The position numbers were made by a program, and so were the translations under genes. Positions 5,273 to 25,227 of a DNA stretch of 32,000 bases are shown in pieces. How positions within the stretch are numbered: the first letter of the stretch is position 1; the number at the start of each line of letters is the position of its first letter. The notes below the pieces were generated by a model, which was not told where the DNA came from, searched no databases, and saw only the letters and a list, made by a program, of their open reading frames with translations. The stretch comes from Synechococcus sp. A15-28 (GTDB taxonomy: Bacteria > Cyanobacteriota > Cyanobacteriia > PCC-6307 > Cyanobiaceae): contig NZ_CP047931.1 of NCBI RefSeq assembly GCF_014280175.1, forward strand, positions 1,830,001 to 1,862,000, in the 5' to 3' direction.

Positions 5273-8200
5273 TCATGGGCAGTGCTGAAACAAGCGGAGC
5301 GTCGATGCCCCAGTCCACCGCCCATGCCCCTGACGGCGATCAGCCAAGGGCCAGCGGTGGCAGCCCTGGAGCCGGCCGCCTGCTGCAGCATCGCCTCGAG
5401 TTGGTGGAAGACCTGTGGCAAACCGTGCTGCGCAGTGAGTGCCCTCCGGATCAGAGCGAGCGACTGCTCCGCCTCAAGCAACTCAGCGATCCAGTGGCCC
5501 TCGAAGGCCGTGACGGCGACAGCAGCAGCGAGGCGATCGTCGAGCTGATCCGCAGCATGGATCTCTCCGAGGCCATCGCGGCGGCCCGTGCCTTCTCCCT
5601 GTATTTCCAGCTGATCAACATCCTCGAGCAGCGCATCGAGGAGGACAGCTACCTCGACAGCCTTCGCCCGAGCCGCAACCAGGACGAGGAGACCGCGGCC
5701 CCCTTTGATCCCTTCGCCCCACCGCTGGCCAGCCAGACCGACCCCGCCACCTTCGGCGAAGTGTTCGAACGGCTACGGCGGATGAATGTGCCTCCTGCAC
5801 AGGTCGAAACGCTGCTGCGGGAACTGGACATCCGTCTGGTGTTCACCGCCCACCCGACGGAAATCGTGCGTCACACCGTGCGTCACAAGCAGCGGAAGGT
5901 GGCGTCCCTGCTGCAGCGGCTCCAGTCGGAGCCGGCATTGCCCCGCTACGACGAGGAGGAACTGCGACGCCAGCTGGAGGAGGAGATCCGCCTCTGGTGG
6001 CGCACCGACGAGCTGCACCAGTTCAAACCGACGGTGCTGGATGAGGTCGACTCAACCCTGCACTACTTCCAGCAGGTGCTGTTCGAAGCGATGCCACAGC
6101 TGCGGCGGCGGCTGATGTCGTCCCTGAGCCGGCACTATCCCGATGTGCAGTTCCCCCAGGCATCCTTCTGCACCTTCGGGTCCTGGGTGGGGTCCGACCG
6201 GGACGGCAATCCTTCGGTGACCCCTGAGATCACCTGGCGAACCGCCTGTTATCAGCGCCAGCTGATGCTGGAGCTCTACATCGGCTCCGTGCAATCCCTG
6301 CGCAACCAGCTGAGCATCTCAATGCAGTGGAGCCAGGTGGCACCACCACTGCTGGAGTCGCTGGAGATGGATCGGCTGCGCTTCCCGGAGATCTATGAGC
6401 GCCGGGCCGCCCGCTATCGGCTGGAGCCCTACCGACTCAAGCTCAGCTACATCCTCGAACGGCTGGAGCTCACACTGCAGCGCAACCACCAGATGTCCGA
6501 GGCTGGCTGGCAGTCTCCGTCCGAACCCGCCACCACGACTCCCACCGAGGGAATCCCCGGCCATGAAGCGCTGCACTACACGGACATCGATCAGTTCCGC
6601 AGCGACCTTGAACTGATCCGCAACAGCCTCGTCAGCACCGAGCTGAGCTGCGAACAGCTCGACACCCTGCTGAATCAGGTCCACATCTTCGGGTTCTCCC
6701 TGGCCAGCCTGGACATCCGGCAGGAGAGCACCCGTCACAGTGACGCCATCGATGAGCTGACCACCCATCTGCAGCTGCCCAAGGCCTACGGCGCCATGGA
6801 GGAACCCGAGCGGGTGAGCTGGCTGATGGAGGAACTGCAGACCCGCCGACCACTGATCCCAGCATCGGTGCAGTGGTCTGAAGCCACCGCCCAGACCTTC
6901 GCCGTGTTCCAGATGCTGCATCGCCTGCAGCAGGAGTTCGGTCAGCGCATCTGTCACTCCTACGTGATCTCGATGAGCCACACCGCCTCCGATCTTCTGG
7001 AGGTGATGCTGCTGGCGAAAGAGGTCGGCCTGGTGGATCCGCTGGCCGGCAAGGCATCGCTGCTGGTCGTGCCCCTGTTCGAAACGGTGGAAGACCTCCA
7101 GCGGGCCCCGGCGGTGATGAAGGGGCTGTTCCAGGCGCCGCTGTATCGCAATCTTCTTCCCAACGTTGGCGTCCAGCGCCAGCCCCTGCAGGAGCTGATG
7201 CTCGGTTATTCCGACAGCAACAAGGACTCGGGTTTCCTCTCCAGCAACTGGGAGATTCATCAGGCCCAGATCGCCCTGCAGACGTTGGCCAGCAACCACG
7301 GCGTGGCCCTGAGACTGTTCCATGGCCGGGGCGGTTCGGTGAGCCGCGGCGGCGGTCCGGCCTACCAGGCGATCCTGGCCCAGCCCAGCGGCACGCTGCA
7401 GGGGCGAATCAAGATCACGGAACAGGGTGAGGTGCTGGCCTCCAAATACAGCCTGCCGGAACTCGCCCTTTACAACCTGGAGACCGTCACGACGGCGGTG
7501 GTGCAGAACAGCTTGGTGACCAATCAGCTGGATGCCACCCCGAGCTGGAACCAGTTAATGAGCCGCGTGGCCAAGCGATCCCGTGAGCATTACCGCGCCT
7601 TGGTGCATGACAACCCTGATCTGGTGGCGTTTTTCCAGCAGGTCACCCCGATCGAGGAGATCAGCAAGCTTCAGATCTCCAGTCGTCCGGCCCGCCGCAA
7701 GACCGGGGCCCGGGATCTCTCCAGTCTCCGGGCGATCCCCTGGGTGTTCGGCTGGACCCAAAGCCGGTTCCTGCTGCCGAGCTGGTTCGGTGTGGGGACA
7801 GCCCTGGCGGAGGAAGTCAACAACGACCCCGAGCAACTGGACCTGCTCAGGCGGCTGCATCAGCGCTGGCCGTTCTTCCGGATGCTGATCTCCAAGGTGG
7901 AGATGACGCTCTCCAAGGTCGATCTCGACCTGGCGCACCACTACATGAACAGCCTTGGCAATCCGGAGCAGCGCGATGCCTTTGAAGACATCTTCAACGT
8001 GATCGCCGACGAATACGCACGCACCCTGAAGCTGGTGCTCGAAATCACCGGCCAGAGCCGGCTGCTGGGGGCGGATCAGAACCTGCAGCTGTCGGTGGAT
8101 CTGCGCAACCGCACGATTGTTCCCCTGGGCTTCCTGCAGGTGGCCCTGCTGCGGCGACTGCGGGATCAGAACCGTCAACCTCCCATGAGCGAATCCCCTG

Positions 8201-8301
8201 GAACACCGGAGGACCGTCGCACCTACAGCCGCAGTGAACTGTTGAGGGGCGCACTGCTCACCCTCAACGGCATTGCCGCCGGCATGCGCAACACCGGCTG
8301 A
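5269..8301 (+). CDS. ppc: Phosphoenolpyruvate carboxylase
   Basis: Motifs are [39 protein letters not shown] and the C-terminal [11 protein letters not shown]. The start is placed at ATG 5269, which overlaps the gshA stop (ATGA). ATG 5275 is equally possible. Confidence 0.93.
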
Positions 8302-8305
8302 TCCC

Positions 8306-8779
8306 TTGCTTTCGTTCCTTCAGCAGCCCAGTGTTCCTCAACTTCCCGAGGGCTACCGCCTCGAAACCGGCCTGATGCCAGAGCCGGCGGCCATTAATCG
8401 GTTGCTGGCGTCCTGCCAGGAATCCACTCACCCGGAAGCGCTCTGGCCCAAGGCGATGGAACGGAGCCTGTGGCAGATCAGCATCCTCGAAGAATCCACT
8501 GGGGAGCTGGTGGGTTTCGTACGCGCCACCAGCGACATGGCCCTCAATGCCAATCTGTGGAATCTTGCCGCCCGCCCGGGTCCTGATCAGGCCCGGCTGC
8601 TGACCGTGCTGATGCATCGGGCCCTGAACATCCTGCGGCGGGACCTGCCCGGCTGCAGCCTGTCGGTCTCGGCACCAGCCATGTCAATCGATGCCCTGAA
8701 GGGCCAGGGTTTCGTGATTGATCCCAGTGGCATCCGGGCCATGGGATTGAGGCTGAAACCAACCTCTGGAACTGACTGA
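8306..8779 (+). CDS. GNAT-like acetyltransferase-fold protein
   Basis: A GNAT-like core is present (ELVGFVRATSD...LNANLWNLAARP...LKGQGF). The start is ambiguous: TTG 8273 overlaps ppc, TTG 8306 is chosen here, and ATG 8375 is also possible. Confidence 0.45.
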   Translation: MLSFLQQPSVPQLPEGYRLETGLMPEPAAINRLLASCQESTHPEALWPKAMERSLWQISILEESTGELVGFVRATSDMALNANLWNLAARPGPDQARLLTVLMHRALNILRRDLPGCSLSVSAPAMSIDALKGQGFVIDPSGIRAMGLRLKPTSGTD

Positions 8780-8782
8780 ACA

Positions 8783-8856
8783 CGAGCATGGAGGGATTCG
8801 AACCCCCGACCCTCAGAACCGGAATCTGATGCTCTATCCAACTGAGCTACATGCCC
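8783..8856 (-). tRNA. tRNA-Arg (anticodon CCG)
   Basis: The reverse complement folds by hand as a 74-nt cloverleaf. The acceptor is GGGCATG/CATGCTC, the D-arm GCTC-AGTTGGATA-GAGC and the anticodon arm TCAGA-TTCCGGT-TCTGA. The T-arm is GGGGG-TTCGAAT-CCCTC and the discriminator is G. No CCA is encoded. Confidence 0.9.
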
Positions 8857-8866
8857 ACTGGCCTCA

Positions 8867-10060
8867 GTGAGGGATCAGCAGGAGACCGCCCGACAGGCCG
8901 GCCCGTTATCAGTACCTTACCCAAACGCCGCCCCGCGACCCATCCGGCTCCAAACGCTCCAGCTGCAGGGGTTTCGGAACCACAGGCAACTGTCGCTGGA
9001 GCTGACCCAGCCCCGGTTGCTGGTGATCGGCCCCAACGGCATCGGCAAATCGAATCTTCTGGAGGCGGTGGAGCTGCTGGGCAGCCTGCGGTCCCATCGC
9101 TGCAGCCAGGACCGTGACCTGATCCAGTGGGAAGCACCCCGGGCTCTGCTGCGGGCCGGACTGGACGATGGCGATCAGCTGGAGCTGGAACTGCGTCGCC
9201 AGGGAGGACGTCAGGCCCGACGCAACGGCAAGACCCTGGACCGCCAACTGGATCTGATCGGCCCGCTGCGCTGCATCGGGTTCAGCGCCCTCGATCTGGA
9301 GCTGGTGCGGGGGGAACCATCCCTGCGTCGTCAGTGGCTCGACCGGGTGGTGCTCCAGCTGGAACCTGTCTACGCCGATCTGCTCAGCCGCTACAACCGG
9401 CTGCTGCGCCAACGCAGCCAGCTCTGGCGTCGCAGCGGGCAGACCAGCCCGAGCCAGCGGGACGCCCTGCTGGATGCCTTTGATGCCCAGATGGCCCTGG
9501 TGAGCACGCGCATTCACCGCCGCCGCCAACGGGCCCTGCGGCGCCTGGCACCGATCGCTCGCCGCTGGCAGTCGCACCTGAGTGCCGGGAGCGAGGAGCT
9601 GGACCTGCAGTACCAACCTGGAAGTCGCCTCGATGCCGAGGAGGCTGAGGAGCCATGGCGACTGGCCATTGAAGAGCAGCTGCGGCGGCAACGGCCGGAG
9701 GAGGAACGGCTGGGCAGCTGCCGGGTGGGGCCCCATCGCGATGAAGTCGCCCTGCTGCTGGGAGGCACACCGGCCCGGCGCTTTGGTTCAGCGGGTCAGC
9801 AACGCTCCCTGGTGCTCGGCCTGAAACTGGCGGAACTGGAGCTGGTGACGCAGCTGTTCGGAGAACCGCCGCTATTGCTGCTGGACGATGTGCTGGCGGA
9901 ACTGGACCCCACCCGTCAGCACCTGCTGCTGGAGGCGGTGGGGCAGGAGCATCAATGCCTGGTGAGCGCCACCCACCTGAATGGCTTCGAAGGGGGATGG
10001 CGGGAGCACTCACAGATTCTCAATCCAGGAGACCTGAGTCCAGGGGTGAAGATCGGATAA
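8867..10060 (+). CDS. recF: DNA replication/repair protein RecF
   Basis: The product has LQLQGFRNH, Walker [14 protein letters not shown], the signature [17 protein letters not shown] and Walker [16 protein letters not shown] 8867 is the only canonical in-frame start upstream, which gives an N-terminal extension of about 25 aa, so the start is uncertain. Confidence 0.88.
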
Positions 10061-10090
10061 TCTGGTGTGCTGTTTTTCTCTGATCGCCTG

Positions 10091-10546
10091 ATGGAGCAGA
10101 CCCTGTCTGACCTGCATCCCAACCCGGGATGGGGGGACACCCAGTTGCAAGCCACCGACATGGTCGGCAAACACTGCATTCTCGAGCTCTACGACTGCGA
10201 TCCTGCCCGGCTCGACGACGAAGCATTCCTGAGAACCACCATCACGACAGCAGCGAAACGTGCTGGTGCAACCCTTCTCAATCTGACCACCCACAGCTTC
10301 GAGCCCCAGGGCGTCACGGGACTGGCCCTGCTGGCGGAATCGCACATATCCATCCACACCTGGCCCGAGAGCGGTTATGCCGCCGTCGATGTGTTCACCT
10401 GCGGTGACCACACGATGCCGGAACAGGCCTGCGCCGTACTGCGGGATGAACTGCGGGCCCAGCGCCATGCCCTGAGGAGCTTCCTGCGGGAAACACCGGC
10501 GGCTGTGGCCAGCACCGTGCGTGAACCAATCCAGCTGCCCAGCTGA
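10091..10546 (+). CDS. speD: S-adenosylmethionine decarboxylase proenzyme (small bacterial SpeH/SpeD class)
   Basis: Motifs are [12 protein letters not shown], the self-processing site [14 protein letters not shown] and DVFTCG. Alternative starts are GTG 10067 and ATG 10160. Confidence 0.85.
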
Positions 10547-11377
10547 TCAGAGGCTGCGGTTGAGCTTGCCGCTCACCAGGCCCTCCAGATCCAGGCTGAC
10601 GGAGGTGAACCCCATATCCAGCAGGCTGCTGACCAGGGGTTCCTTTGCGTTGAGAGCCAGCAGATCATCCAGTCGATCCTGGGGCACCTCGATGCGAGCC
10701 GAGAGGCCCTGACTGCGCACCCTCACCCTGGGAAAACCTCGATCCAGCAGCCAGGCTTCCGCCTGGCCGACCCGCTTGAGCCGCTCGGCACTGATGCTCT
10801 CGCCGTAGGGAAAACGGGATGCGAGGCAGGGCTGGGCCGGCTTGTCCCACCAGGGGAAGCCAAGGGCTGACGACAGCTGACGGATCGCGGCCTTATCGAT
10901 CGCCAACTCCGCCAAGGGCGAGCGCACCCCGGCCTGCCGGGCCGCCTCGATGCCGGGGCGATGGTCACCCAGGTCATCCAGATTCACCCCATCCACCACC
11001 AACGCCCCACCGGCGGCGGCCGCGATGGGCTGGAGGTGGTGATGCAACTCCCGCTTGCAGGCAAAACAGCGGTCGGTGGGATTGCTGCTGTAGTCGGGAT
11101 CGTTGAGCTCGCGGGTTGAACACTCCTGATGGCGGATGCCGATCCACTGCGCCTGAGCCCGCGCTTCCTGCAACAGATGGGGGGCCAGAGCCGGCGACAC
11201 CCCGGTCACCGCAACTGCAGAATCCCCCTTCTGCTCATGGGCGATCGCCGCCACCAGGGTGCTGTCCACACCACCGGAATAGGCCACGCACAGGGCCTCC
11301 TGTGACGCCAGCCAGCTGCGCAACTGCTGAAGCAGATCGGCCTCCCGGGGCGGCAAAGATTCCTGCAGCCGGAACAT
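10547..11377 (-). CDS. LarE-family PP-loop ATP-utilising enzyme (TIGR00268-like sulfur transferase)
   Basis: Motifs are the PP-loop VAYSGGVDST, CFACK, DHRPG and PCLASRFPYG...RVR...ARIE. The start is taken at ATG 11375-11377 (MFRLQ) rather than the TTG at 11413. Confidence 0.7.
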   Translation of the reverse strand: MFRLQESLPPREADLLQQLRSWLASQEALCVAYSGGVDSTLVAAIAHEQKGDSAVAVTGVSPALAPHLLQEARAQAQWIGIRHQECSTRELNDPDYSSNPTDRCFACKRELHHHLQPIAAAAGGALVVDGVNLDDLGDHRPGIEAARQAGVRSPLAELAIDKAAIRQLSSALGFPWWDKPAQPCLASRFPYGESISAERLKRVGQAEAWLLDRGFPRVRVRSQGLSARIEVPQDRLDDLLALNAKEPLVSSLLDMGFTSVSLDLEGLVSGKLNRSL

Positions 11378-11430
11378 CAGCAGAACAACCCGGGCGATCT
11401 CGGTAGGCTCCAACGGTAAGAGCCGGGACC

Positions 11431-12579
11431 ATGCCCCGAAGCATCGGCATCGTGACGGCGGCGGACAGCCGCGAGCGCAGCCATGGTCAGCTGCACATCT
11501 ACGACGGTGAGGGCAAAGGCAAGAGCCAGGCCGCGCTGGGGGTGGTGCTGCGCACCATCGGGTTGGGCATCTGTGAGCAGCGACGCACCCGGGTGCTGCT
11601 GCTGCGCTTCCTCAAGGGCCCCGGCCGGGCCTACGACGAAGATGCTGCCATCGAAGCCCTCCAGCAGGGATTCCCCCATCTGATCGACCATCTGCGCACG
11701 GGCCGGGCCGATCACTTCACCGCCGATGAGGCCACCCGCTTCGACCGGGAGGAAGCCCAGCGTGGCTGGGTGATCGCCAAAGGGGCCATCGCCAGCGCGT
11801 TGTACTCGGTGGTGGTGCTGGATGAACTCAACCCCGTGCTGGATCTGGGGTTGCTGGATGTGGAGGACGTGGTCAACACCCTCAGGCAGCGACCCGAGGG
11901 CATGGAAATCATCGTGACCGGCCGTGCGGCACCGGCACCGCTGGTGCGGGTGGCGGATCTGCATTCCGAGATGCGGGCGCACCGGCGGCCGGGGCTGGAA
12001 GAGGAGCGGGTGATCCCGCTCAACATGAGCAGCGGCATTGAGATCTACACCGGCGAGGGCAAGGGCAAATCCACCAGCGCCCTCGGCAAGGCGCTGCAGG
12101 CGATTGGCCGCGGCATCAGCCAGGACAAGAGCCACCGGGTGCTGATCCTGCAGTGGCTGAAAGGGGGCAGCGGCTACACCGAGGACGCCGCCATCGCGGC
12201 CCTGCGGGACAGCTATCCCCATCTGGTGGATCACCTCCGTTCCGGCCGTGATGCCATCGTCTGGCGCGGCCAGCAGGAACCGATCGATTACGTGGAGGCG
12301 GAACGGGCCTGGGAGATCGCCCGCGCTGCCATCTCAAGCGGGCTGTACAAAACGGTGATCCTCGATGAGCTCAATCCAACGGTGGATCTGGAGCTGCTGC
12401 CGGAGGAGCCGATCGTGCAGACCCTGCTGCGCAAACCGACGGAAACTGAAGTGATCATCACCGGACGCTGCAAGAACCAACCGGCCTATTTCGATCTGGC
12501 CAGCATTCACTCTGAAATGGTCTGCCACAAGCACTACGCCGAGCAGGGTGTGGACCTTAAGCGGGGTGTGGACTATTGA
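11431..12579 (+). CDS. cobO: Cob(I)yrinic acid a,c-diamide adenosyltransferase, tandem two-domain form
   Basis: Two consecutive CobA/CobO-like halves each have a P-loop-like IY(D/T)GEGKGKS..ALG, an LKG motif and VVLDELN/VILDELN. Each half also has a (V/I)TGR...SEM tail. The product is 382 aa. Confidence 0.8.
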   Translation: MPRSIGIVTAADSRERSHGQLHIYDGEGKGKSQAALGVVLRTIGLGICEQRRTRVLLLRFLKGPGRAYDEDAAIEALQQGFPHLIDHLRTGRADHFTADEATRFDREEAQRGWVIAKGAIASALYSVVVLDELNPVLDLGLLDVEDVVNTLRQRPEGMEIIVTGRAAPAPLVRVADLHSEMRAHRRPGLEEERVIPLNMSSGIEIYTGEGKGKSTSALGKALQAIGRGISQDKSHRVLILQWLKGGSGYTEDAAIAALRDSYPHLVDHLRSGRDAIVWRGQQEPIDYVEAERAWEIARAAISSGLYKTVILDELNPTVDLELLPEEPIVQTLLRKPTETEVIITGRCKNQPAYFDLASIHSEMVCHKHYAEQGVDLKRGVDY

Positions 12580-12631
12580 GATCTTGACAAGGTTTTTGTA
12601 GAGTTTGTATGCGGAAATCTTTAAATCACCA

Positions 12632-12649
12632 TTGGCTGAGGCCAGCCAA
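12632..12649. terminator. Small hairpin between the convergent cobO and ParA-like genes
   Basis: TTGGCTG-aggc-CAGCCAA is a 7-bp stem with a 4-nt loop. On the minus strand it is followed by the T-containing stretch gtgatttaaagattt. There is no clean U-tract. Confidence 0.25.
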
Positions 12650-12662
12650 GCAAATCGTTAGT

Positions 12663-13358
12663 TCAGGCAGCCATACGTTGTTCCAAGGGTGTGAAATCCC
12701 ATCCAATTGGTGACTGGATTGGATTTAGCTTTTTGTGCTCTTCGTATAAATCTTCGATTTCTTTACAGGCCGAGCTATATGCAGTCCAGCCCATCATCCG
12801 GCGTGGATTAGCTCGCCCACGGCTGTCAATTGCCTGATCAACAGTGACTCCTTCTGTTTCTGCTTGCTCAAATGCACTTAGCAACGGAATCTGTGCATCA
12901 AGAACATTTATGTCGAATCCTTCAAGACATTCTTTAGCGCTTTTGGCAGCAGCTCCTTTACGTGAGTCAACTTTTACAAGAAGTGCGGCATATGGGATCT
13001 TGTATTGATTGATCGTCTGTGCCATCTCAATTGTCAATTCGACTGATCGACTTTGTGTAGTCGTAGGCAGCAAAACGAAGTCAGCACCCTCTACCAAATT
13101 CTTCATCTCTTCTTCGTTGGTGCTCGCTTGTCCATCTGTGACTACGATCTCTGCTGATCGAGTGGCTTTTGCTGCTGCTTCAATCGGCACAACTGGGCAA
13201 GGCAAGAGTCCTCTGGCTCCGTAGGCAGTGGCCGATCGATTTCGGTCGGCATCAACCAGGACGACCCGTTTTTGGCGATGACTCCAACTTGCTGCGATGT
13301 GAACGCTGCTACACGTTTTGGCGACACCCCCTTTCTGACCAAAAACAGTGATGAACAT
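12663..13358 (-). CDS. ParA/Soj-family partition-type ATPase (orphan, no ParB seen)
   Basis: The 231-aa product has the deviant Walker A FGQKGGVAKT followed by VVLVDADRN. The gene has a low-GC composition. Confidence 0.75.
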   Translation of the reverse strand: MFITVFGQKGGVAKTCSSVHIAASWSHRQKRVVLVDADRNRSATAYGARGLLPCPVVPIEAAAKATRSAEIVVTDGQASTNEEEMKNLVEGADFVLLPTTTQSRSVELTIEMAQTINQYKIPYAALLVKVDSRKGAAAKSAKECLEGFDINVLDAQIPLLSAFEQAETEGVTVDQAIDSRGRANPRRMMGWTAYSSACKEIEDLYEEHKKLNPIQSPIGWDFTPLEQRMAA

Positions 13359-14009
13359 CAGACAGCAACCAATGACTCATTCGCAGGATCGCGTTCTTTT
13401 TCCGGGAAGGCAATGCTGGGTTATTGCTGCTTCAGCCCGATGACTGCCACCCAGATCTGGGTCACCCGTTGTTGTGGGGTTAGCTCTCAAGCGATCCCCA
13501 TCATTGGAGCCAACCACTCGGCATGAAGTGCTGCGAGCACTGACATGTCAAAGGCATGCACCGCTGGGTTGGTCTTGTCTACCACCCACAGGAGTCCAAA
13601 GGGTGCGTTGATGGCCAGCTGCAGCCGCCACCGCCACGTGATGACCTTCCAGGTCTTCTGAAGGATCGAGTTCTTGTACATGGCTGAGTTGAACCTAAAT
13701 TGTTTGGACCCTATCCAGCTGTGCATCCATATCGCTGATCAACCCACCGGTCACGCAAGTCATTCCTGTGCAGATCGATCAGGCAACAGGTCGATCCTTC
13801 ACCTCCGCACCGCCAAGCTCTCAGATGGCGCCAAGGTCACCCGAGAAGAGAGCTGTCATCGCTAAGCGGACTCATCATCCGGCCATCTCAGCGCTCAATC
13901 GGAGAGCAGCACCCAGCAACGCCTCTGATATTCCTTCCCGCACTTGCCTCGTTGGCGATCGCCTCTTGTCACGACGGCGACAAGTGGAGGTTAATAGCCT
14001 CCGAAATAG

Positions 14010-14042
14010 GGCGTGGACCTCAAGAACGGCGTGGACTACTGA
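14010..14042 (+). pseudogene. Relic copy of the cobO 3' terminus (encodes GVDLKNGVDY-stop)
   Basis: Hand alignment gives 26/33 identities to cobO 12547-12579 (GVDLKRGVDY-stop), and both copies end in TGA. Four of the seven differences are synonymous third-position changes and the other three fall in one codon (cgg to aac). An in-frame TAG lies immediately upstream (14007-14009). Confidence 0.55.
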
Positions 14043-14161
14043 AAGCGAAGTGAATAAGCTGATAAGTTTTCAATCAAATTCCGTATCTTTTTGCTGTAAA
14101 AGCTTTCCAAAAGGAGCTTCACGGCAAGAAGAGAAATCGACAGGACAAAATTTATTTTCCC

Positions 14162-14226
14162 TTTAACCTTGAAAAAACCAGTCAATAATTCGATCTTAAA
14201 CTAGAAGGATGCTCTAGAGCTACATT
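14162..14226 (+). promoter_or_regulatory. Candidate Pho box (PhoB/SphR-type) plus -10 element upstream of ptxA
   Basis: Four 8-bp units lie in 11-bp phase: TTTAACCT (14162), AAAAACCA (14173), AATAATTC (14184) and CTTAAACT (14195). They score 8/8, 5/8, 5/8 and 7/8 against PyTTAAPyPy(T/A). TACATT at 14221-14226 lies 18 bp after the last unit. Confidence 0.3.
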
Positions 14227-14251
14227 TACCCTATCAGCAAAGATGAATTAA

Positions 14252-14998
14252 TTGAAACCTTCCGCGCTCTCGGCTAATTCGATACATCTAGACTACAACA
14301 ATATTGCCGCACTTAACGATATTAATCTAACAATCAATAGCGGCGAAGTCACCATACTCCTTGGATCCTCCGGAGCAGGTAAATCGTCATTACTAAAAAC
14401 ACTCAATTTTCTAAACCGACCAACGAAAGGCTGGATTAGCAACTCGTCTGTAGGTCGCATTGACTCCTCCAAAAAGCTAAGAGATCACCGAAAAATGACC
14501 GGCATGATCTTTCAACAACACCAATTAATAGAGCGAAATACTGCACTTTGCAATGTAATGATGGGTCGTCTTGGATATTTTTCATTTTGGCGATCACTCC
14601 TGCCGCTGCCTGTTGCAGACCAATTACGTTGTATCGATTGTTTAGATCGAGTTGGCCTTTTGGATAAGGCATTAACGACTGTCTCGTCATTAAGTGGCGG
14701 ACAACCACAGAGGGTTGGAATTGCACGTGCCTTGGCACAGCAACCCAGAATAATGCTGGCTGACGAGCCAATAGCAAGTTTAGATCCTCAGAGCTCTCAT
14801 CAAATCCTAGGCTTATTAACTGACATATGTAAATCAGACAATATTGCCATGGTAATCAGCCTTCATCAAGTGGAATTCGCGAAACAATACGGTGACCGAA
14901 TAATTGGACTTTCAGGCGGCAAAATAATATGTGATAAAAGTCCATCTTCGCTTTCTGCAGACGAATTTGATGCAATTTATACTCCATCTCCAAGATAA
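14252..14998 (+). CDS. ptxA: Phosphite/phosphonate ABC transporter ATP-binding protein
   Basis: Motifs are Walker A GSSGAGKSS, the signature LSGGQPQRVGIARAL and Walker B IMLADEP. The start is TTG 14252. An in-frame ATG at 14243 is cut off by TAA 14249-14251. The gene is first in a phnCDE-like set that ends with ptxD. Confidence 0.85.
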   Translation: MKPSALSANSIHLDYNNIAALNDINLTINSGEVTILLGSSGAGKSSLLKTLNFLNRPTKGWISNSSVGRIDSSKKLRDHRKMTGMIFQQHQLIERNTALCNVMMGRLGYFSFWRSLLPLPVADQLRCIDCLDRVGLLDKALTTVSSLSGGQPQRVGIARALAQQPRIMLADEPIASLDPQSSHQILGLLTDICKSDNIAMVISLHQVEFAKQYGDRIIGLSGGKIICDKSPSSLSADEFDAIYTPSPR

Positions 14999-15037
14999 AT
15001 GAAGAGACCTTTTCATTGGTTCGAATTCCTTTCCTTG

Positions 15038-15974
<937 letters not shown>

Positions 15975-15982
15975 TTAAACTT

Positions 15983-16008
15983 GCTCTCTCTTCATTAGAA
16001 GAGAGAGC
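15983..16008 (+). other. Perfect 11-bp stem-loop between ptxB and ptxC
   Basis: GCTCTCTCTTC-atta-GAAGAGAGAGC is followed by TTT. It lies 9 nt after the ptxB stop. Confidence 0.6.
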
Positions 16009-16036
16009 TTTACTTCTTCATTGCTTGATTATCGCT

Positions 16037-16840
16037 ATGACCAACAGCCAGTATCAACTAATCAGACATAATCTAAGCCGACGCCGCCTTCAAATGTTCT
16101 ACAGATATACGTTTATCTTGATAACTGTTGCTGTTGGTTTTGGCTTTGCAGGGCTTTTCAACGTCGAACGTCTGGTAGATGGAATTCCTTCAATTTGGAA
16201 ACTCTTATCAGAAATGATCCCACCAGATTTTAGTCGGTGGAAAGAGTGGTTTATTCCCCTGTTGGACTCACTTGCCATGAGCATTGCTGGTACGGCGATC
16301 GCAGTGTTTATATCATTACCACTATGCTTACTTGCAGCTAGAAATACAGCACCCAACAAATTTCTTTTCTATATTGCTCGTCTCATCCTGAATTTCTCTA
16401 GAGCAATTCCAGAGTTGATTATGGGAATGATTTTCGTAGCGGCTGTAGGATTTGGCAAACTTCCGGGAACACTCGCCCTAGGCCTCCACTCGGTTGGCAT
16501 GGTTGGAAAGTTTTTTGCTGAATCAATTGAATTAAGCAGTCCTTTACCTGTTGAGGCAGCACGTGCAGCTGGAGCTAATCATGCTCAAGTCATCTACCAC
16601 AGCATTCTTCCTCAGGTTCTCCCACAGATGGCAGATGTGACATTTTATCGATGGGAATACAATTTTCGAGCGTCAATGGTTGTAGGCGCCGTTGGCGCTG
16701 GTGGCATTGGCCTTGAAATTATCAGCTCACTTCGCTTAATCAAGTATCAAGAAGTTTGTGCACTTCTGATTGTTGTTTTGATAATGGTGACCATGGTAGA
16801 TAGCCTTAGCAATTACCTTAGAAAAAACTTTGTAGGATGA
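16037..16840 (+). CDS. ptxC: Phosphite/phosphonate ABC transporter permease
   Basis: The product is a PhnE-like polytopic membrane protein. Its stop overlaps the ptxD start (ATGA at 16837-16840). ATG 16037 is preferred over TTG 16025. Confidence 0.85.
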   Translation: MTNSQYQLIRHNLSRRRLQMFYRYTFILITVAVGFGFAGLFNVERLVDGIPSIWKLLSEMIPPDFSRWKEWFIPLLDSLAMSIAGTAIAVFISLPLCLLAARNTAPNKFLFYIARLILNFSRAIPELIMGMIFVAAVGFGKLPGTLALGLHSVGMVGKFFAESIELSSPLPVEAARAAGANHAQVIYHSILPQVLPQMADVTFYRWEYNFRASMVVGAVGAGGIGLEIISSLRLIKYQEVCALLIVVLIMVTMVDSLSNYLRKNFVG

Positions 16841-17820
16841 CTACCAAAGATCAAAAGTCCAAAGTTGTGATTACGCACCGAGTAGATCCACGGATTATAC
16901 GCACTTTAGAAACATCTTTTCATGTAATAACTAATCAGACAAGCCATACACTTGATCGAAGCGAAATACTTGCAAGATGCAGGGATGCCGTTGGCTTGAT
17001 GGTCTTCATGCCCGACAGCATTGACGAGGATTTCCTCTGTCAATGTCCTCGCCTAAAGACGATTGCGGGCGCATTAAGGGGTTACGACAACTTTGATATT
17101 GATGCTTGCCGGTCTCATGGAGTCAACTTCACTATTGTGCCCGATTTATTGGCTCAACCTACTGCCGAGCTAGCCCTTGCCCTAGTTCTGGCGCTTGGAC
17201 GTCGATTGTTGGAGGGAGACGATTACATGCGTTCCGGTGAGTTTCACGGATGGAGACCAAAGCTATACAGCTTTGGCGTCATGAAAAGGAGGATTGGTGT
17301 CGTAGGGATGGGGCGCCTTGGTAGAGCTTTTACCCGAGTTGTCTCGGGATTAGACTGCACAGTGAAATATTATGATCAACAACAACTGAATCCTGATTTG
17401 CACCAAGAGCTAGGCGTTGAATATTTAAACTTTGAAAGCCTTCTCAAGTGGAGTGATTATTTAGTAATGATGCTGCCCCTCACAGAGTCGACGCATCATT
17501 TAATTAATAAAGACAGCTTATCCCTTTTAAAACGAGGATCTTTCCTTGTCAACGTTGGGCGTGGATCTACGGTTGACGAGATAGCAGTAGCAGATTCTTT
17601 AGATAGTGGTCTTCTTGCGGGTTACGCTGCTGACGTTTTCGAAATGGAAGACTGGGTTCGCGAGGATCGTCCTAATGCAATCAATTCTCGCTTAATCGAA
17701 AGCAAGTCAAATACTTTTTTCACTCCACATGTCGGATCAGCCGTGTCAGACATCCGCTATGAAATCGAGTTAGAAGCAGCTCAATCACTACTTAGTTCAG
17801 CCCCGAATTCTATTAATTAA
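16837..17820 (+). CDS. ptxD: NAD-dependent phosphite dehydrogenase
   Basis: The protein collinearly resembles my recollection of Pseudomonas stutzeri PtxD. Shared blocks are VITHRV, TNQT, ILARCRDA, FMPD, GYDNFDIDAC, VPDLLAQPTAELA and SGEFHGWRP. The Rossmann motif is GVVGMGRLG. Catalytic-position motifs are VGRGSTVDE, GYAADVFEMEDW and FTPHVGSAV. Confidence 0.88.
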   Translation: MTTKDQKSKVVITHRVDPRIIRTLETSFHVITNQTSHTLDRSEILARCRDAVGLMVFMPDSIDEDFLCQCPRLKTIAGALRGYDNFDIDACRSHGVNFTIVPDLLAQPTAELALALVLALGRRLLEGDDYMRSGEFHGWRPKLYSFGVMKRRIGVVGMGRLGRAFTRVVSGLDCTVKYYDQQQLNPDLHQELGVEYLNFESLLKWSDYLVMMLPLTESTHHLINKDSLSLLKRGSFLVNVGRGSTVDEIAVADSLDSGLLAGYAADVFEMEDWVREDRPNAINSRLIESKSNTFFTPHVGSAVSDIRYEIELEAAQSLLSSAPNSIN

Positions 17821-17829
17821 TTTTTTTGT

Positions 17830-17860
17830 GAGAGTTCACGGTACTCTCGTGATTCTTTTT
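17830..17860 (+). terminator. Candidate rho-independent terminator after ptxD
   Basis: GAGAGT-tcacggt-ACTCTC is a 6-bp stem (extendable by G-U pairs), followed by gtgattcTTTTT. Confidence 0.4.
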
Positions 17861-17997
17861 ATCGGCCTAGCCTGATCGCGGCCGAACAACTCACCCAAAT
17901 ACAAAGCTTTTAGGAATAAATACACGAAATGACCTATTACTGGCATTGACGAATGATTTGAGTATGTGTGCACGGCATGAATGACTGAATCAATCGA

Positions 17998-19131
17998 TCA
18001 GTAACGCGGCACGGTCTGATCCACCTGCACGGACCAGGCATCGATGCCGCCATCGACGTTGGTGGCCGTGATGCCCTGCTCAGCCAGCAGCTCCACGGCC
18101 TGGGCGGAACGGCCGCCGAGTTTGCAGTGGACGTAAAGGCGCCCGGTTTCCGCCATTCCGCGGATGCGTTCGATCGCCTCACCGCTTTTGATCGTGGCCA
18201 GAGGAATCAGCACTGCCCCAGGGATCACAGCCACCTCGGCTTCGGCGGGGTTGCGCACATCCAGTAGCACCACATCGTCTGCCGAGCCATCCAGCAGCGA
18301 CTTGAGCTCGATCACGCTGATGCTGTCCATGGGGGGCGCCGTCGCTCGGCAGAACTGCTGGTAGTCAATCAAGCGATCGATCGCCGGCCGATCCGGGTCA
18401 CGCCGCAGCGTCAGCTCACGGAAACGCATCGTCAGGGCATCCACCACCAGCAAGCGACCATCCAGGCTCCGGCCGATGCCGGTGATCAGCTTGATCGCCT
18501 CCGTCGCCTGAATCAAGCCGATCAGCCCGGGCATCACCCCCATCACCCCGGCCTCCGCGCAGGACGGCACCTGCTCCACCGGCGGTGGCTCCGGCAGCAG
18601 ATCGCGGTAGTTGGGGCTGTCCGGCGTGCGGTTGAACACCGATGCCTGGCCGTCAAAGCGCTGCACCGATCCATAGATCAAGGGCTTTCCCTGCAAGACG
18701 CAGGCGTCGTTCACCAGGTACCGCGTCGGGAAATTGTCCGAGCCATCACACACCAGGTCGTATGCCGATATCAGTTCGAGGGCGTTCTCCCGATCCAGCA
18801 TCTGCTCATGCAGCACCACCTGACAGTGGGGATTGAGCTCCTGCAGCCTGTGCGCGGCGGAGCGCCCCTTGGATTGGCCGAGCCAGTCCATCCCATGAAT
18901 CACCTGCCGCTGCAGGTTCGACAGCTCCACGACATCCCCATCGACGATGCCGATCCGGCCGACACCTGCGGCGGCCAGATACAGCAGCAGCGGTGAGCCC
19001 AGACCACCGGCGCCAACGCAGAGCACGGACGACGCCTTGAGCCGTTCCTGTCCGGCATGACCCACCTCCGGCAGCATCAGGTGGCGGGCATAACGGCTCC
19101 GCTCCTCCCCACTCAGTTCCTCAATCGACAT
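17998..19131 (-). CDS. moeB: ThiF/MoeB-family adenylyltransferase fused to a C-terminal rhodanese domain (MoeZ-like)
   Basis: Motifs are RYARHLMLPEVG, the nucleotide loop VGAGGLGSP and NLQRQ. The rhodanese active-site loop is HCKLGGRS. Confidence 0.85.
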   Translation of the reverse strand: MSIEELSGEERSRYARHLMLPEVGHAGQERLKASSVLCVGAGGLGSPLLLYLAAAGVGRIGIVDGDVVELSNLQRQVIHGMDWLGQSKGRSAAHRLQELNPHCQVVLHEQMLDRENALELISAYDLVCDGSDNFPTRYLVNDACVLQGKPLIYGSVQRFDGQASVFNRTPDSPNYRDLLPEPPPVEQVPSCAEAGVMGVMPGLIGLIQATEAIKLITGIGRSLDGRLLVVDALTMRFRELTLRRDPDRPAIDRLIDYQQFCRATAPPMDSISVIELKSLLDGSADDVVLLDVRNPAEAEVAVIPGAVLIPLATIKSGEAIERIRGMAETGRLYVHCKLGGRSAQAVELLAEQGITATNVDGGIDAWSVQVDQTVPRY

Positions 19132-19633
19132 CGATCGGCACCGGCCGCACCTGCCGATCCTCCTCCAGCCACCAGGCCCTCAGTTCGTGCTGGCCCGAGA
19201 GGATCAACATCAGCTGGTGAGGGATACCCCGACAGCGATCCGCCTCAGACGGCAACGGCGGGCTTTGTGGATGGGAATGGGCCACACCGATGATCCGTTG
19301 TTGGTGTTGCCGCGACCAGCGCTGCGCCGCCAGTTGTTCGCGGGGGTCGAGCAGGAAATTGCTGTGCCGGCCATGGGAGTCAGCCGCTCCCCACGGCTGC
19401 AGATCCGGCTGGCGGCCCCAGCGATTGCACACCGGCCAGACGTGATCCAACCGCAGCGAGGTACCCTCGCCCGGGGATCCGATCAACAGAGCACATCCCT
19501 CCTCAGGCCAGCTCGCCAGCAAGGTGCGCTCCAGAATCGTGAGGCATCCACAACGCAGCTGCAGCGTGGATGGCGCGATCGATGAAGCGCCGATACGCTC
19601 AGCTGACCGTATGAACAGTTCTGTCGGTTCCAT
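19121..19633 (-). CDS. JAMM/MPN (Mov34) family metalloprotease
   Basis: The product has EEGCALLIG and the JAMM motif HSHPQSPPLPSEAD (HxHx7Sx2D). Its stop overlaps the moeB start by 11 nt. The start is taken at ATG 19631-19633 and is uncertain. Confidence 0.7.
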   Translation of the reverse strand: MEPTELFIRSAERIGASSIAPSTLQLRCGCLTILERTLLASWPEEGCALLIGSPGEGTSLRLDHVWPVCNRWGRQPDLQPWGAADSHGRHSNFLLDPREQLAAQRWSRQHQQRIIGVAHSHPQSPPLPSEADRCRGIPHQLMLILSGQHELRAWWLEEDRQVRPVPIDVD

Positions 19634-20024
19634 GAGCGACGCCACCACCGAAGTTAAGGACCCCGCGACCGACGCGACCCCTGCGGTGGAAGCGTCTGCC
19701 ACCAGCTCCGAAGACACCACCTCCTTCACCGAGCGCTACAGCGAAGTGCTGGGCAAGGTGAACGAAACCCTCGACCAGGTCGACTGGAACCAGATGGGTC
19801 GCATCGGCAAGATCGTTGGCATCTTCGCTGCTGTGATCGTTGCTCAGATCCTGATCAAGGGCATCCTCGACACGATCAACCTGCTGCCCGTGGTTCCCGG
19901 TCTGCTGGAGCTGCTCGGCGTTGTGGTGGTGGGCCAGTGGAGCTGGAGAAATCTCACCACCAGCGACAAGCGCAGCGCTCTGGTGCAACGGGTGCAGTCC
20001 CTGCGTCAGGAATACCTCGGCTGA
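19611..20024 (+). CDS. CAAD-domain membrane protein (CurT/CURT1-like)
   Basis: An acidic N-terminus is followed by two hydrophobic helices (IVGIFAAVIVAQILIKGIL, VVPGLLELLGVVVVGQW) and an amphipathic tail. The start is ATG 19611 or 19632. Confidence 0.55.
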   Translation: MNSSVGSMSDATTEVKDPATDATPAVEASATSSEDTTSFTERYSEVLGKVNETLDQVDWNQMGRIGKIVGIFAAVIVAQILIKGILDTINLLPVVPGLLELLGVVVVGQWSWRNLTTSDKRSALVQRVQSLRQEYLG

Positions 20025-20028
20025 GGTC

Positions 20029-20919
20029 TCAAGCGATCATCCGAGCCAGGCGCTTCAGGCAGTCCTGGCTCTGGGAGACGTATCCGCCTCCGAACAGGTT
20101 GGCGTGGTTCAGCAGGTGATACAGGTTGTAGATCTCGACGCGCTCCTCCCAACCTGAGCGAAGCCGGAGCACTGCGTCGTAAGCCGCGTAAAACGCTGGG
20201 CTGAATCCGCCGAACATCCGCGTCATCGCAAGATCCACCTCGCGGTCGGCCCACCAGCTGGCGGGGTCATAGAGGGCACCACGCCCATCCATCAGCACCC
20301 CTGCATTACCGCCCCAGAGGTCGCCATGCACCAGGGCGGGGCTGGGGGCATGGTCGTCCAGCCCCTGACGCAGGCCAGTCAGCAACTGATCCAGCCAGTC
20401 CCCCGGCAGGGAGAGATCCCCGGCCAGGGCCAACTGGGGCCGCAGACGCAGCTCCACAAAACAGGCCCCCCATTCATCCCGCCATCCCCCCGGCTGGGGG
20501 CCTGCACCGATGTAGCCATCGCGATCCCAGCCGAAGCGCTGGGGTGATGCCGCTTCCGAGGCCCGGTGCAGCAGTGCCAGGCCATGCCCAAGGGCCCGCT
20601 GATCGCTGCCGCTGAGCTCCAGCCAGGGCAGCAGCAGCACCGCTCCGCCGGGCAGGACTGACAGGGCCAGCGGCTTGGGCACCACCAGCCAATCCGGATC
20701 GGCCTGGGCATGCAGGGCTTCAAGCGCCTCGGCCTCCACATCAAACAGGGCCATGGCCTGGGTGTTGCCGCTCTTGGCGAAGAGCCGTTCGCCATCCGCC
20801 AACGTCAGACACCAGGCCTGGTGGATGCAGCCGCCCCCCACCGCATGCACATCCACCAGCTGGCGGCCCGGCAGCGGTCCAGTGGATGCCACCAGCTCCT
20901 GCCGCAGTTGAGGGTGCAT
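20029..20919 (-). CDS. Fructosamine/ketosamine-3-kinase family protein
   Basis: The product has [10 protein letters not shown] near the N-terminus and the catalytic [10 protein letters not shown]. The start is taken at ATG 20917-20919 (MHPQL), with ATG 20949 as an alternative. The rest of the 623-aa tracked ORF is an antisense artefact. Confidence 0.8.
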
Positions 20920-20970
20920 CGCCGGGAAGGATCGCTCTGTTGCCAGCATGCACCGGTTCAGGGGTGCGCT

Positions 20971-22473
20971 TTGACGGCAACCGGAGTGATCGTGATCGGT
21001 GGCGGCATCGCCGGGCTCACCGCAGCGGCGCTGCTGGCCAAGGAAGGTGTGCCGGTGACGCTGCTGGAGGCGCATCACCAGCCGGGGGGGTGTGCCGGCA
21101 CGTTCCGCCGCGGTCCGTGGACCTTTGATGTGGGCGCCACCCAGGTCGCCGGGCTCGAACCGGGCGGAAGCCATGCCCGACTGCTGCAGCATCTGGGCCT
21201 GCCCCTGCCGGAAGCCGAGATCCTTGACCCCGGTTGTGTGGTGGATCTCGGGGATGGCTCGGAGCCCATCCCCCTCTGGCATGACCCCGAGCGCTGGAGC
21301 GAGGAACGCCGTCGCCAGTTCCCCGGCAGCGACGCCTTCTGGCGCCTTTGTGAGCTGATCCATCGCAGCAACTGGGGCTTCGCTGGTCGCGATCCGGTGG
21401 TCACGCCGCGATCTTTGTGGGACCTCCGCCAACTGCTCAGCGCCCTGCGCCCGATCACCGTGGCCTCGGGTCTGCTGACGGGACTGACCATGGCCGACCT
21501 GCTCGGCCTCTGCGGCTGTGGCGACGACCCACGGCTGCGACGGTTCCTCGACCTCCAGCTCAAGCTGTATTCCCAGGAGCCCGCAGACCGGACCGCGGCT
21601 CTCTACGGCGCCACGGTGCTGCAGATGGCGCAGGCACCGCTGGGGCTCTGGCATCTGCATGGCTCGATGCAAGTGCTCAGCGATCAGCTGGTGCAGGCGA
21701 TCGAAAACCAGGGCGGCCGCGTGCTGATGCGCCATCGGGTCACCGGCCTCGAACCCACCGACGAGGGCTGGCGCGTCGTCGTGGACAGTCCCTCCGGCCG
21801 GGATCAGATCCACACAGCCGCTGATCTGATCTGCAGCCTGCCGCCCCAATGTCTGTTGGATCTGATCCCCGAAGCGGTGATGCCCAGGGGATACCGGCAA
21901 CGCCTGAGCCAGCTGCCGGAGCCCAGTGGCGCACTGGTGCTCTATGGCGCCGTGCGACGGGAGGCGTTACCCAGCTCCTGCCCGGGCCATCTGCAACGGG
22001 GGGCTGACGATCCGGGCTCTCTGTTCGTCTCGATCAGCCGGGAGGGTGACGGTCGGGCCCCGAAAGGTCAGGCCACCGTGATCGCCAGCGTGTTCACACC
22101 CACCGCGGACTGGTGCAGCCTCGAGGAGGAGCCCTACCAGGCCCGCAAAAGCAAGCGCCTGGACGCCATGCGCCGGGAGCTCAACCACTGGCTTGATCTG
22201 AAGCCCCAGGACTGGTTGCACGTGGAACTGGCTACGCCCAGGGGATTCGCCGGTTGGACCGGTCGCCCGCGGGGCATCGTGGGGGGACTCGGCCAGCATC
22301 CGAGCCGTTTCGGGCCCTTCGGGCTGGCGGGGCGGACGCCGATGCCAGGCCTTTGGCTCTGCGGCGACAGCCTCCACCCCGGCGAGGGAACGGCGGGCGT
22401 CAGCCTCTCAGCCCTCAATGCCTGCCGGCAGCTGGTGGCAGCGCGGGGCGGAGAGCTGCAACTCAGGGGTTGA
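20971..22473 (+). CDS. Phytoene-desaturase-family FAD oxidoreductase (CrtD/CrtH-like)
   Basis: The dinucleotide fold [31 protein letters not shown] is N-terminal, and the C-terminus has [13 protein letters not shown]. Possible starts are TTG 20971, GTG 20986 and GTG 20992. The exact carotenoid function is not assignable by eye. Confidence 0.6.
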
Positions 22474-23338: not shown

Positions 23339-23420
23339 GCCGTTCCACGCTCCTCGGGTCATGTTGGTCGATCGATTGCGATGAACCGTTTGGGCATCGA
23401 ACTCTGCGTAGGGTTCACCG

Positions 23421-24866: not shown

Positions 24867-24916
24867 ACTCAGCCGGCTCAATCCTGCATAAACTGACCGG
24901 AGGACAACTTGATGGG

Positions 24917-25165: not shown

Positions 25166-25227
25166 CCCGCAGAGCCGCGCAGAAACTGAAGGAAACCTTT
25201 AGCGTGGGTCTTGATTAAGACTCAGGC

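Follow-up and report, generated by a model that had tools for sequence, protein, structure and literature searches.

The 3' end of cobO as a likely integration site beside a composite ptxABCD island of marine Synechococcus

We analyzed a stretch of 32,000 nucleotides from Synechococcus sp. A15-28 (NCBI RefSeq assembly GCF_014280175.1, contig NZ_CP047931.1, positions 1,830,001 to 1,862,000 of the forward strand), which is called the window here. A block of low G+C content at 12580-17997, carrying a parA-like gene and the phosphite genes ptxABCD, lies in the window between the genes cobO and moeB. We found that the cobO-moeB junction is an insertion hotspot. It is likely a hotspot for site-specific integration, in which case the left part of the block is the remnant of an element that has no integrase and the ptx operon was in place downstream beforehand. 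The island is composed of two modules, with a displaced copy of the cobO end (14008-14042) and a step in composition at 14043 between them. Genomes and contigs used for comparison are referred to by labels (L001 and so on), L001 being the closest relative.

The left module (12580-14042, 1.46 kb) is bounded by the live 3' end of cobO and by the displaced copy of this end, so that the 3' end of the target gene is directly repeated at its two borders (12535-12579 and 14008-14042; Table 1). The displaced copy is identical to the window's own cobO end at 28 of 35 nt and to the cobO ends of other genomes at 31 of 35 nt. When a codon-degenerate 45-nt core is used, the displaced copy matches at 32 of the 38 specified positions (the maximum in 300 shuffles of the island is 26), and the live cobO end matches at all 38. 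A profile of element left ends also detects the displaced copy in an nhmmer search (14007-14042, E=1.6e-5), the aligned part extending no further than the stop codon. This profile, made from nine other ends and excluding the window, matches the live end and the sequence following it (12535-12630) with E=8.4e-20. Just after the cobO stop codon, a left-end block with two phased repeats, GTTTGTA-N4-GTTTGTAT, is common to the window, L001, L011 and L014. The phased-repeat motif is unique in the window (one match, 0.03 expected). The cobO open reading frame (ORF) is intact, encoding 382 aa that align over the full length of PRK07413 (NCBIfam, 779 bits versus a cutoff of 426; Pfam PF02572, E=1e-87), and the gene is 88-95% identical to that of L001 at the nucleotide level over its full length. 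Its end shows a lower G+C content at third codon positions (GC3), with the codons GGT, CTT, GGT and TAT, and the last 100 nt fall to 0.55 G+C. By analogy with L197 (see below), most of the core at the live cobO end was probably supplied by the element.

We then investigated the cobO-moeB junction in relatives. A CobO scan of species-representative genomes gave 80 loci, 60 of which were evaluable (both gene ends placed). The gap between cobO and moeB is 60 nt or less in 44 of these 60 loci, and 20 nt or less in 32. This adjacency is the rule across Synechococcus, Cyanobium and Prochlorococcus. Neither parA nor ptx occurs within 10 kb of cobO in any of the 80 loci. Other low-G+C insertions (36-49% G+C) are found at this junction in L001, L008, L011, L014, L016 and L026, and the window island shows no similarity with them beyond the shared left end. 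Two ORFs of the L016 insertion are large (408 and 464 aa), and a small one is rich in Gly and Ala. The miniature insertions of L011 (143 nt) and L197 (~430 nt; 331-806) consist of the element left end alone between two cobO cores, and represent either scars left behind by deleted elements or very small elements of a non-autonomous kind. A 32-nt perfect repeat of the cobO end is found in L001. In L011, L193 and L197, the distal copy of the cobO end runs directly into the native spacer and the moeB stop codon. The distal copy of L197 has the native codons and spacer of its lineage (compare L006), and the copy attached to cobO ends with GATTATTGA and is followed by element sequence. Therefore, the element provides the gene with a new end and displaces the old one.

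We then scanned metagenome contigs with a pattern composed of the last 9 nt of cobO, 12 nt and the repeat block, for which we estimate less than one chance match. The scan returned eight contigs, and all eight carry the complete 45-nt core, though the pattern held only its last 9 nt. Six of them are occupied cobO junctions. The remaining two, L195 and L191, differ in that the core is preceded by non-cobO DNA. In these contigs, a gene encoding a 461-aa protein starts ~100 nt from the core and reads away from it. The protein matches PHROG integrase families (E=1.6e-16) and has the blocks GLRP, KTGKQRTVP, YSLRSTY, LAGHT and EKYYARLD, corresponding to the R..K..xxR..H..Y pattern of a tyrosine recombinase. 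Copies of the repeat block flank the core on either side and share one orientation; the arm-type sites of lambda-like integrases are likewise arranged on both sides of a core. The GTTTGTA motif used alone gave 91 matches in viral contigs, none of them with cobO-like upstream sequence, and these were discarded as chance matches.

Two further contigs, L199 and L200, have a 68%-identical integrase gene ~100 nt from a perfect cobO core. Here the core is flanked by different 11-nt-phased repeats (GTTAGAA), arranged as GTTAGAAT-AAA-GTTAGAAC. Since the repeats change with the integrase while the core is constant, they appear to behave as binding sites would. Both contigs also carry a T7-type RNA polymerase gene, full-length in L199 (PHROG_414, E=1e-144), whose nearest phage relative is that of Synechococcus phage P60 with 28.7% identity. 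L199 may belong to an undescribed podovirus lineage that integrates at cobO. At E<=1e-10, the integrase family comprises 47 members, which come without exception from marine metagenomes or low-light Prochlorococcus. The integrase was unmatched among 50,697 phage records, and IMG/VR contigs, queried with a single protein or with an alignment, contained no relatives of the integrase or of PtxB. The G+C content of the integrase-bearing cobO-targeting contigs is 41-45%. In Prochlorococcus sp. MIT 1201 (L198), a 48%-identical integrase marks one end of an insertion of 9.7 kb, which is bordered by a perfect 19-nt repeat of the rpsD 3' end (YYSRKV; 9870-9888 and 19574-19592) and has the same topology. 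No tRNA gene was found in L195, L191, L199 or L198. Several conserved protein genes thus seem to be targeted at their 3' ends by this integrase family. We also noted a phage-like metagenome contig (L203, 290-560) with an NYSRKV* core and TTCTTCAAAG repeats upstream of an integrase gene.

The preliminary description of this stretch, made from the letters alone, had called the mobilization mechanism not evident. For the left module, however, the relatives make one evident, which is probably integrase-mediated insertion at the last ~45 nt of cobO. In the history that we propose, these nucleotides (YAEQGVDLKRGVDY*) would be the attB site for heterobivalent-type tyrosine integrases of one family, which small cargo elements and at least one T7-like phage lineage carry. 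The attP site would be a copy of the cobO end with 11-nt-phased arm repeats (GTTTGTA-N4-GTTTGTAT) on both sides. Integration would rebuild the cobO reading frame from the copy of the element, and the old cobO end would be pushed to the far side of the element, beside the integrase gene. The left 1.46 kb of the island would be such an element, which would have lost its integrase gene and P arm and kept its P' arm, parA, the gene for a 79-aa protein and the displaced cobO end. The displaced cobO end is immediately followed by the ptx operon, which would therefore already have adjoined cobO on the downstream side before the parA element came in. The ptx genes may have come by an earlier integration at the same site, the ends of which were lost, or by allele exchange through the conserved flanks.

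Several observations weigh against this history. The window has neither an integrase gene nor P-arm repeats, and integration in this genome is suggested by scars and by relatives. The activity of the integrase on the cobO core is likewise a prediction from sequence, and the match of the integrase to Pfam Phage_integrase is weak (20.8 bits, below the gathering cutoff of 27.1). L195, L191, L199 and L200 are linear contigs with no terminal overlap, in which an attP site is indistinguishable from a junction of tandem elements. The ptx module has no recognizable element end after the displaced cobO end and no third cobO core at moeB. A decayed third core suspected at 17974-17988 (GGCATGAATGACTGA) was rejected, since no score in 14043-18010 exceeds 19 of 27, which is within the range of shuffled sequences; no third core was found near moeB in L091 or L001 either. 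Finally, a relic of a foreign empty cobO/moeB junction sits directly to the left of the displaced cobO end, where a P arm is expected, and the simple model does not explain it. The relic (13967-14001) consists of the last 13 nt of cobO, a 10-13-nt spacer ACAAGTGGAG, and the moeB stop codon with ~10 nt of the moeB 3' end. It is of the type of the Synechococcus metagenome-assembled genome BS30m-G31 (L012), with a local alignment score of 28 versus a maximum of 25 in 500 shuffles. It seems that the element carried a piece of the junction of a former host.

The composition of the block is clearly distinct from that of the surrounding DNA. With exact coordinates, the G+C content is 45.2% for 12580-17997, 64.3% for the left flank (1-12579) and 65.3% for the right flank (17998-32000). 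In sliding windows, it drops from 0.61-0.70 to 0.41-0.56 between ~12500 and 18000. The GC3 values are 0.35-0.43 for five island genes and 0.74-0.83 for the larE-like gene, cobO, moeB and the JAB gene. The tetranucleotide distance between island and backbone is 0.361, versus 0.124 +/- 0.009 (maximum 0.154) in 200 size-matched pieces of backbone. The edges are sharp in 100-nt windows, going from 0.55 to 0.43 at the cobO stop codon and from 0.36 to 0.65 at the moeB stop codon, and the borders are the stop codons of these two convergent genes. Thus, the low-GC block and the abrupt switch at the cobO stop codon that had been pointed out in the preliminary description are real. Its estimate of 32-38% G+C captured the contrast, but these values are local minima in an island with a mean of 45%. 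We also agree with its account of the gene content (ParA-like and ptxABCD, all accessory) and of the missing integrase, transposase and flanking tRNA. No integrase or transposase was detectable in the window with Pfam, PHROG or tblastn with the L195 integrase, and no tRNA gene exists within 3.7 kb of the island (the nearest are at 8782 and 27558). The idea of an island inserted between core genes is right in that the DNA is foreign and cobO and moeB are adjacent in most relatives, but two modules, not one island, were found. The island is not uniform: the left module has 51.4% G+C, with 55.8% in its 13359-14007 part, and the ptx part has 43.0%; a step from 55.8% (13359-14007) to 34% (14043-14251) lies between them. 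The block is a horizontally acquired island in marine Synechococcus, and an AT-rich island of accessory genes is in itself ordinary.

We then investigated the genes of the left module. The ParA protein belongs to Pfam CbiA/AAA_31 and to the ParA-like PHROG_164 (E=8e-28), and its deviant Walker A motif occupies residues 7-15. It scores 85.6 bits against NCBIfam ParA_partition, below the cutoff of 180, and is 35-38% identical to cyanobacterial plasmid ParA proteins, being of the small plasmid type. No ParB-type domain was found in the ORFs neighbouring parA. Hundreds of parA variants exist in metagenomes. In islands of strains TAK9802 (L092), N32 (L093) and MU1625 (L096), the parA gene and ~100 nt upstream are found with 78-83% nucleotide identity, around 9900-10700 in each. 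These islands are ORFan-rich and located at different chromosomal loci. Only parA and the ~100 nt upstream are shared with these strains, which makes them a discrete module. The simplest guess is that ParA is a leftover maintenance function of an element. The gene for the 79-aa protein was suspected to be debris, an idea that we rejected since it encodes a conserved small protein. Its family has 25 cluster representatives at E<=1e-10, all of 80-120 aa, with a conserved C-terminal region of ~65 aa and the core ...WKVITWRWRLQLAINAPFGLLWVVDKTNPAVHAFDMSVLAALHAEWLAPMMGIA. The ORF is called as a gene on metagenome contigs. It matched no Pfam or PHROG family, and none of the other fetched loci has a homologue. 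We also considered and rejected the presence of an integrase pseudogene in 13360-14010: tblastn with the L195 integrase gave nothing at E<10, and no Pfam or PHROG family matched there.

The annotation of ptxABCD is right, as judged from matches to protein families and solved structures. PtxA and PtxC score above the NCBIfam cutoffs for PhnC and PhnE, respectively. The best solved relative of PtxB is Prochlorococcus MIT9301 PtxB (PDB 5LV1; E=1.7e-120, 70% identity over 264 residues), followed by the phosphite-binding proteins of Trichodesmium and Pseudomonas stutzeri. The best solved relatives of PtxD are phosphite dehydrogenases (6IH2, E=5.5e-103; 4E5K, E=1.3e-95), with the nearest glyoxylate reductase at 7e-54, and the catalytic-region blocks RGS, DVFEME and TPHxGSA are conserved in the alignment. 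Judging by homology, PtxABC would import phosphite and PtxD would oxidize it to phosphate with NAD+, providing an alternative phosphorus source. The TTG starts that had been assigned to several genes are for the most part artefacts, which arise when an ORF is read from its earliest possible start. For ptxB and ptxC, in-frame ATG codons exist 21 and 12 nt downstream and were chosen by gene callers on identical metagenome contigs; only ptxA has no usable ATG. The ptxA gene begins with ATG AAT TAA TTG (14243-14254), in which TAA is codon 3 and the frame is open from the TTG at 14252. Codon 3 is CAG in most wild contigs. It is TAA in the window, L081, L085 and L088, and CAG in L082, L083, L084, L086 and L087. 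The codon-3 stop may thus mark a weakened or inactivated transporter ATPase with impaired expression, segregating in the wild population. The cyanobacterial Pho box has the consensus PyTTAAPyPy(T/A). A candidate Pho box made of the 8-mers TTTAACCT, AAAAACCA, AATAATTC and CTTAAACT at 11-nt spacing lies 41-81 nt upstream of the ptxA ATG (14243). It is the best four-unit match on both strands of the window (25/32), a score equalled in 15 of 300 island shuffles (p ~0.05), and the Pho-box-like array is suggestive only. The operon is probably under Pho control. A consensus scan gave terminator-like sites in the region no more often than expected from shuffles, and only its position, 6 nt after the ptxD stop codon, favours the hairpin listed in Table 1.

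The exact PtxD sequence of the window recurs in marine metagenome contigs (29 blocks), with an unchanged context in every case. These contigs are 97.9-99.6% identical to the window at the nucleotide level, in the island and the flanks alike, and a single wild population thus carries the island as a stable feature. Outside this population, the best PtxD relatives are a sister Synechococcus allele (72% identity) and then assorted non-picocyanobacteria (58% or less). The window fits a published description of a single clade III strain with ptxABDC and without phnYZ (Dore et al. 2023, PMC10119275), so that this part of the finding is already known. A contig from a single-cell genome (L091, GCA_902599585.1) has, in its positions 1-3715, a divergent ptx allele at this same locus, next to a 96%-identical MoeB. 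The L091 cassette is 79% identical to that of the window at the nucleotide level, with 91% for PtxB, 89% for PtxC and 72% for PtxD at the protein level, and its spacer to moeB is unalignable. The much greater divergence of PtxD than of PtxB and PtxC hints at a mosaic cassette. Since the cassette is divergent beside a near-identical MoeB, divergent ptx alleles appear to have been exchanged or re-acquired at this locus.

Such an exchange speaks for a different history, in which a pre-assembled island without an integrase moved as naked, vesicle-borne or transduced DNA and entered by homologous recombination in the highly conserved cobO and moeB flanks, possibly with one illegitimate joint, and no site-specific event took place in this genome. 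The L012-type relic adjoining the displaced cobO end is consistent with such a transfer, as are the G+C content of 13359-14007 (55.8%), which is like that of the backbone of the L008/L011/L012/L014 group (57%), and the lack of an integrase gene in the window. On the other hand, cobO was examined for a switch to an L012-like donor and showed no recombination breakpoint, being L001-like throughout, and the live cobO end has the canonical core and P' arm structure that is common to independent insertions. We regard recombination alone as possible but rather unlikely. It would still need a site-specific origin of the repeat in an earlier host, and thus complements site-specific integration at cobO.

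The preliminary description had favoured a low-GC, possibly Prochlorococcus-like donor, which would mean that a single ~5.4-kb block was imported in one step by an unspecified mechanism. The low G+C and GC3 across the whole block, the 70% identity of PtxB with MIT9301 PtxB, its best solved relative, and the presence of ptxABCD in Prochlorococcus (PMC10119275) are in line with this idea. However, a displaced cobO end and a G+C step divide the island into two modules, the parA module has its closest relatives in other Synechococcus islands, and no match named Prochlorococcus is found among the best 120 PtxD matches. High-light Prochlorococcus has a G+C content of ~31%. The 43-45% of the island is far from this value and the same as that of the cobO-targeting elements (41-45%); therefore, low G+C need not mean a Prochlorococcus donor. 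It may be a signature of the mobile gene pool, given the values of the elements and of the junction insertions (36-49%). A Prochlorococcus-like donor is not established, and we consider a one-step import improbable. An ancestral block lost from the relatives, with a composition shaped by selection or expression and not by transfer, would agree with the stable occurrence of the same island on 29 metagenome blocks (98-99.6% identity). Yet abutting cobO and moeB genes are the rule in three genera, the closest relative L001 carries a different insertion, the duplicated cobO end is a mark of insertion, and the GC3 of the island is ~40 points below that of the neighbouring genes, all of which makes an ancestral block hardly conceivable.

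Site-specific integration at cobO can be compared with several known systems. Tycheposons are elements of Prochlorococcus that target seven tRNA/tmRNA genes and leave partial tRNA repeats (Hackl et al., bioRxiv 10.1101/2020.12.28.424599). Tycheposon-like insertions are known at tRNA-Phe in Synechococcus (Grebert et al. 2022, PMC8995045), with the recombinase at the distal end, beside a target remnant. The cobO elements share this distal-recombinase topology. Like tycheposons, they are tyrosine-recombinase elements of picocyanobacteria that bring niche-adaptive cargo into hypervariable islands (here ptxABCD, with differing insertions in L001, L008, L014 and L016), leave partial target copies as repeats and accumulate by iterative integration. 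Unlike tycheposons, their target is the 3' end of the protein-coding gene cobO, the repeats are of the cobO end and no tRNA is involved; in addition, the window copy has no recombinase, which is present in the related contigs L195, L191 and L199. The T7-like cyanophages P-SSP7 and S-TIP37 integrate by means of int and attP, and tRNA-Leu is what each of the 11 known attP sites matches (Shitrit et al. 2021, PMC8776855). L199 is similar in that a podovirus-type genome with a T7-type RNA polymerase is combined with an integrase and an adjacent core copied from a host segment. It differs in that the core is the cobO 3' end, the integrase is unmatched in the phage records and the RNA polymerase is only distantly related to that of P60. 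In a literature search for cobO as an integration site, we found nothing beyond an unrelated observation, the presence of a cyanobacterial cobO gene in the Prochlorococcus siphovirus P-SS2 (PMC2784084).

The replacement of a gene end has a precedent in other bacteria. Phage 21 and e14 insert in icd of E. coli, bringing a replacement 3' end. As in these cases, the target ORF here is kept intact by a near-identical 3' end that the element would have supplied, and the old end forms a direct repeat at the other border. The host, gene and integrase are different, and the window holds a remnant only. The window has the border direct repeat, the intact cobO ORF and, in relatives, the empty sites of an element that replaces a 3' end; an integrase gene next to a putative att site with arm repeats is absent from the window and seen in L195, L191, L199 and L200. 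The left module also resembles the cis-mobilizable elements (CIMEs), which are integrase-less, att-bounded elements derived from integrative elements. It lies between attL- and attR-type cores and has no integrase gene, and excision in trans by a related integrase would be possible in principle. It differs in lacking the P arm and the arm-type repeats of that arm, which may prevent mobilization in trans. As for the cargo, ptxABCD(-phnYZ) clusters are known from Prochlorococcus MIT9301 and marine Synechococcus (Martinez 2012 and Feingersch 2012, as cited in PMC10119275 and PMC10284923). Clade II strains of Synechococcus have ptxABDC-phnYZ. The window has the same four genes in the same order in a flexible genome region, without phnYZ. 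As far as these clusters are summarized in the ptx literature cited here, no description of the genomic site of ptx or of flanking element scars was found.

Table 1. Features of the window, with insertions at the cobO-moeB junction of other genomes and the L199 contig (coordinates of the respective sequence)
Feature	Position or size	Strand	Description
cobO	11431-12579	+	Tandem-domain cob(I)yrinic acid a,c-diamide adenosyltransferase, intact; likely integration target
attL core	12535-12579	+	Last 45 nt of cobO, YAEQGVDLKRGVDY*
Conserved element left end (P' arm)	12580-12630	+	Phased repeats GTTTTTGTAGAGTTTGTAT at 12592-12610
parA	12663-13358	-	Orphan plasmid-type ParA ATPase, 231 aa, Walker A GQKGGVAKT
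79-aa gene	13487-13726	-	Conserved small hydrophobic protein
Relic of foreign empty cobO/moeB junction	13967-14001	+	Type of Synechococcus BS30m-G31 (L012)
Displaced cobO end, attR-side core	14008-14042	+	Former cobO 3' end, GVDLKNGVDY*
Candidate Pho box	14162-14202	+	Four 8-mers at 11-nt spacing
ptxA	14243-14998	+	Phosphite/phosphonate ABC transporter ATPase; TIGR02315, 268.3 bits (cutoff 266.1); Pfam ABC_tran
ptxB	15087-15974	+	Periplasmic phosphite-binding protein, 295 aa from ATG; Pfam PF12974, E=9e-67
ptxC	16037-16840	+	ABC transporter permease, 267 aa from ATG; TIGR01097 PhnE, 282.8 bits (cutoff 216.7); BPD_transp_1
ptxD	16837-17820	+	NAD-dependent phosphite dehydrogenase
Terminator-like hairpin and T run	17826-17852	+	After ptxD stop codon; consensus scan
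moeB	17998-19131	-	ThiF-rhodanese adenylyltransferase, core gene, right border; Pfam ThiF (E=8e-79) and Rhodanese
Junction insertion, L001	3.0 kb		Closest relative; 44% G+C
Junction insertion, L008	1.1 kb		
Junction insertion, L011	143 nt (11150-11292)		
Junction insertion, L014	1.6 kb		
Junction insertion, L016	>6.4 kb (11150-17585)		36% G+C
Junction insertion, L026	299 nt		
L199, cobO core	2461-2505		
L199, integrase gene	2613-3989		
L199, RNA polymerase gene	5466-7880		T7-type

The genes on both sides of the island are ordinary core genes. Those on the left are psaD, a trpE-like gene, ppc, tRNA-Arg, and genes for a recF-like ATPase and an AdoMet decarboxylase, followed by the larE-like gene and cobO; those on the right are moeB and the genes for a JAB protein, a CAAD protein and fructosamine kinase. 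A shallow dip in G+C content (0.55) at 2001-2500 covers psaD, a highly expressed core gene, and is ordinary.

The 3' end of cobO is likely a site at which cyanobacterial integrases have docked repeatedly and which had not been described before; its core and arm repeats are now defined together with a linked integrase family that is absent from the phage collections searched. This probable attachment site is new, though of a known general kind; the targets described for these organisms in the literature compared here are tRNA genes only. We tentatively propose, as a view that goes well beyond the window, that 3' ends of protein genes (cobO in Synechococcus and rpsD in low-light Prochlorococcus) may be the att sites of one coherent integrase family, shared by an uncultured T7-like phage lineage and by small cargo elements that are possibly satellite-like. 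Such a system would be a protein-gene counterpart of tycheposons, seeding hypervariable islands and ferrying cassettes such as ptxABCD between clades. To our knowledge, marine Synechococcus lacks conjugation and natural competence. The cobO site offers a concrete and testable route by which these bacteria could gain or swap nutrient-acquisition genes. The duplicated cobO end with GTTTGTA repeats is a sequence signature for finding such events in genomes and metagenomes, and the integrase with its att site is a candidate pair for genetic tools in marine Synechococcus.

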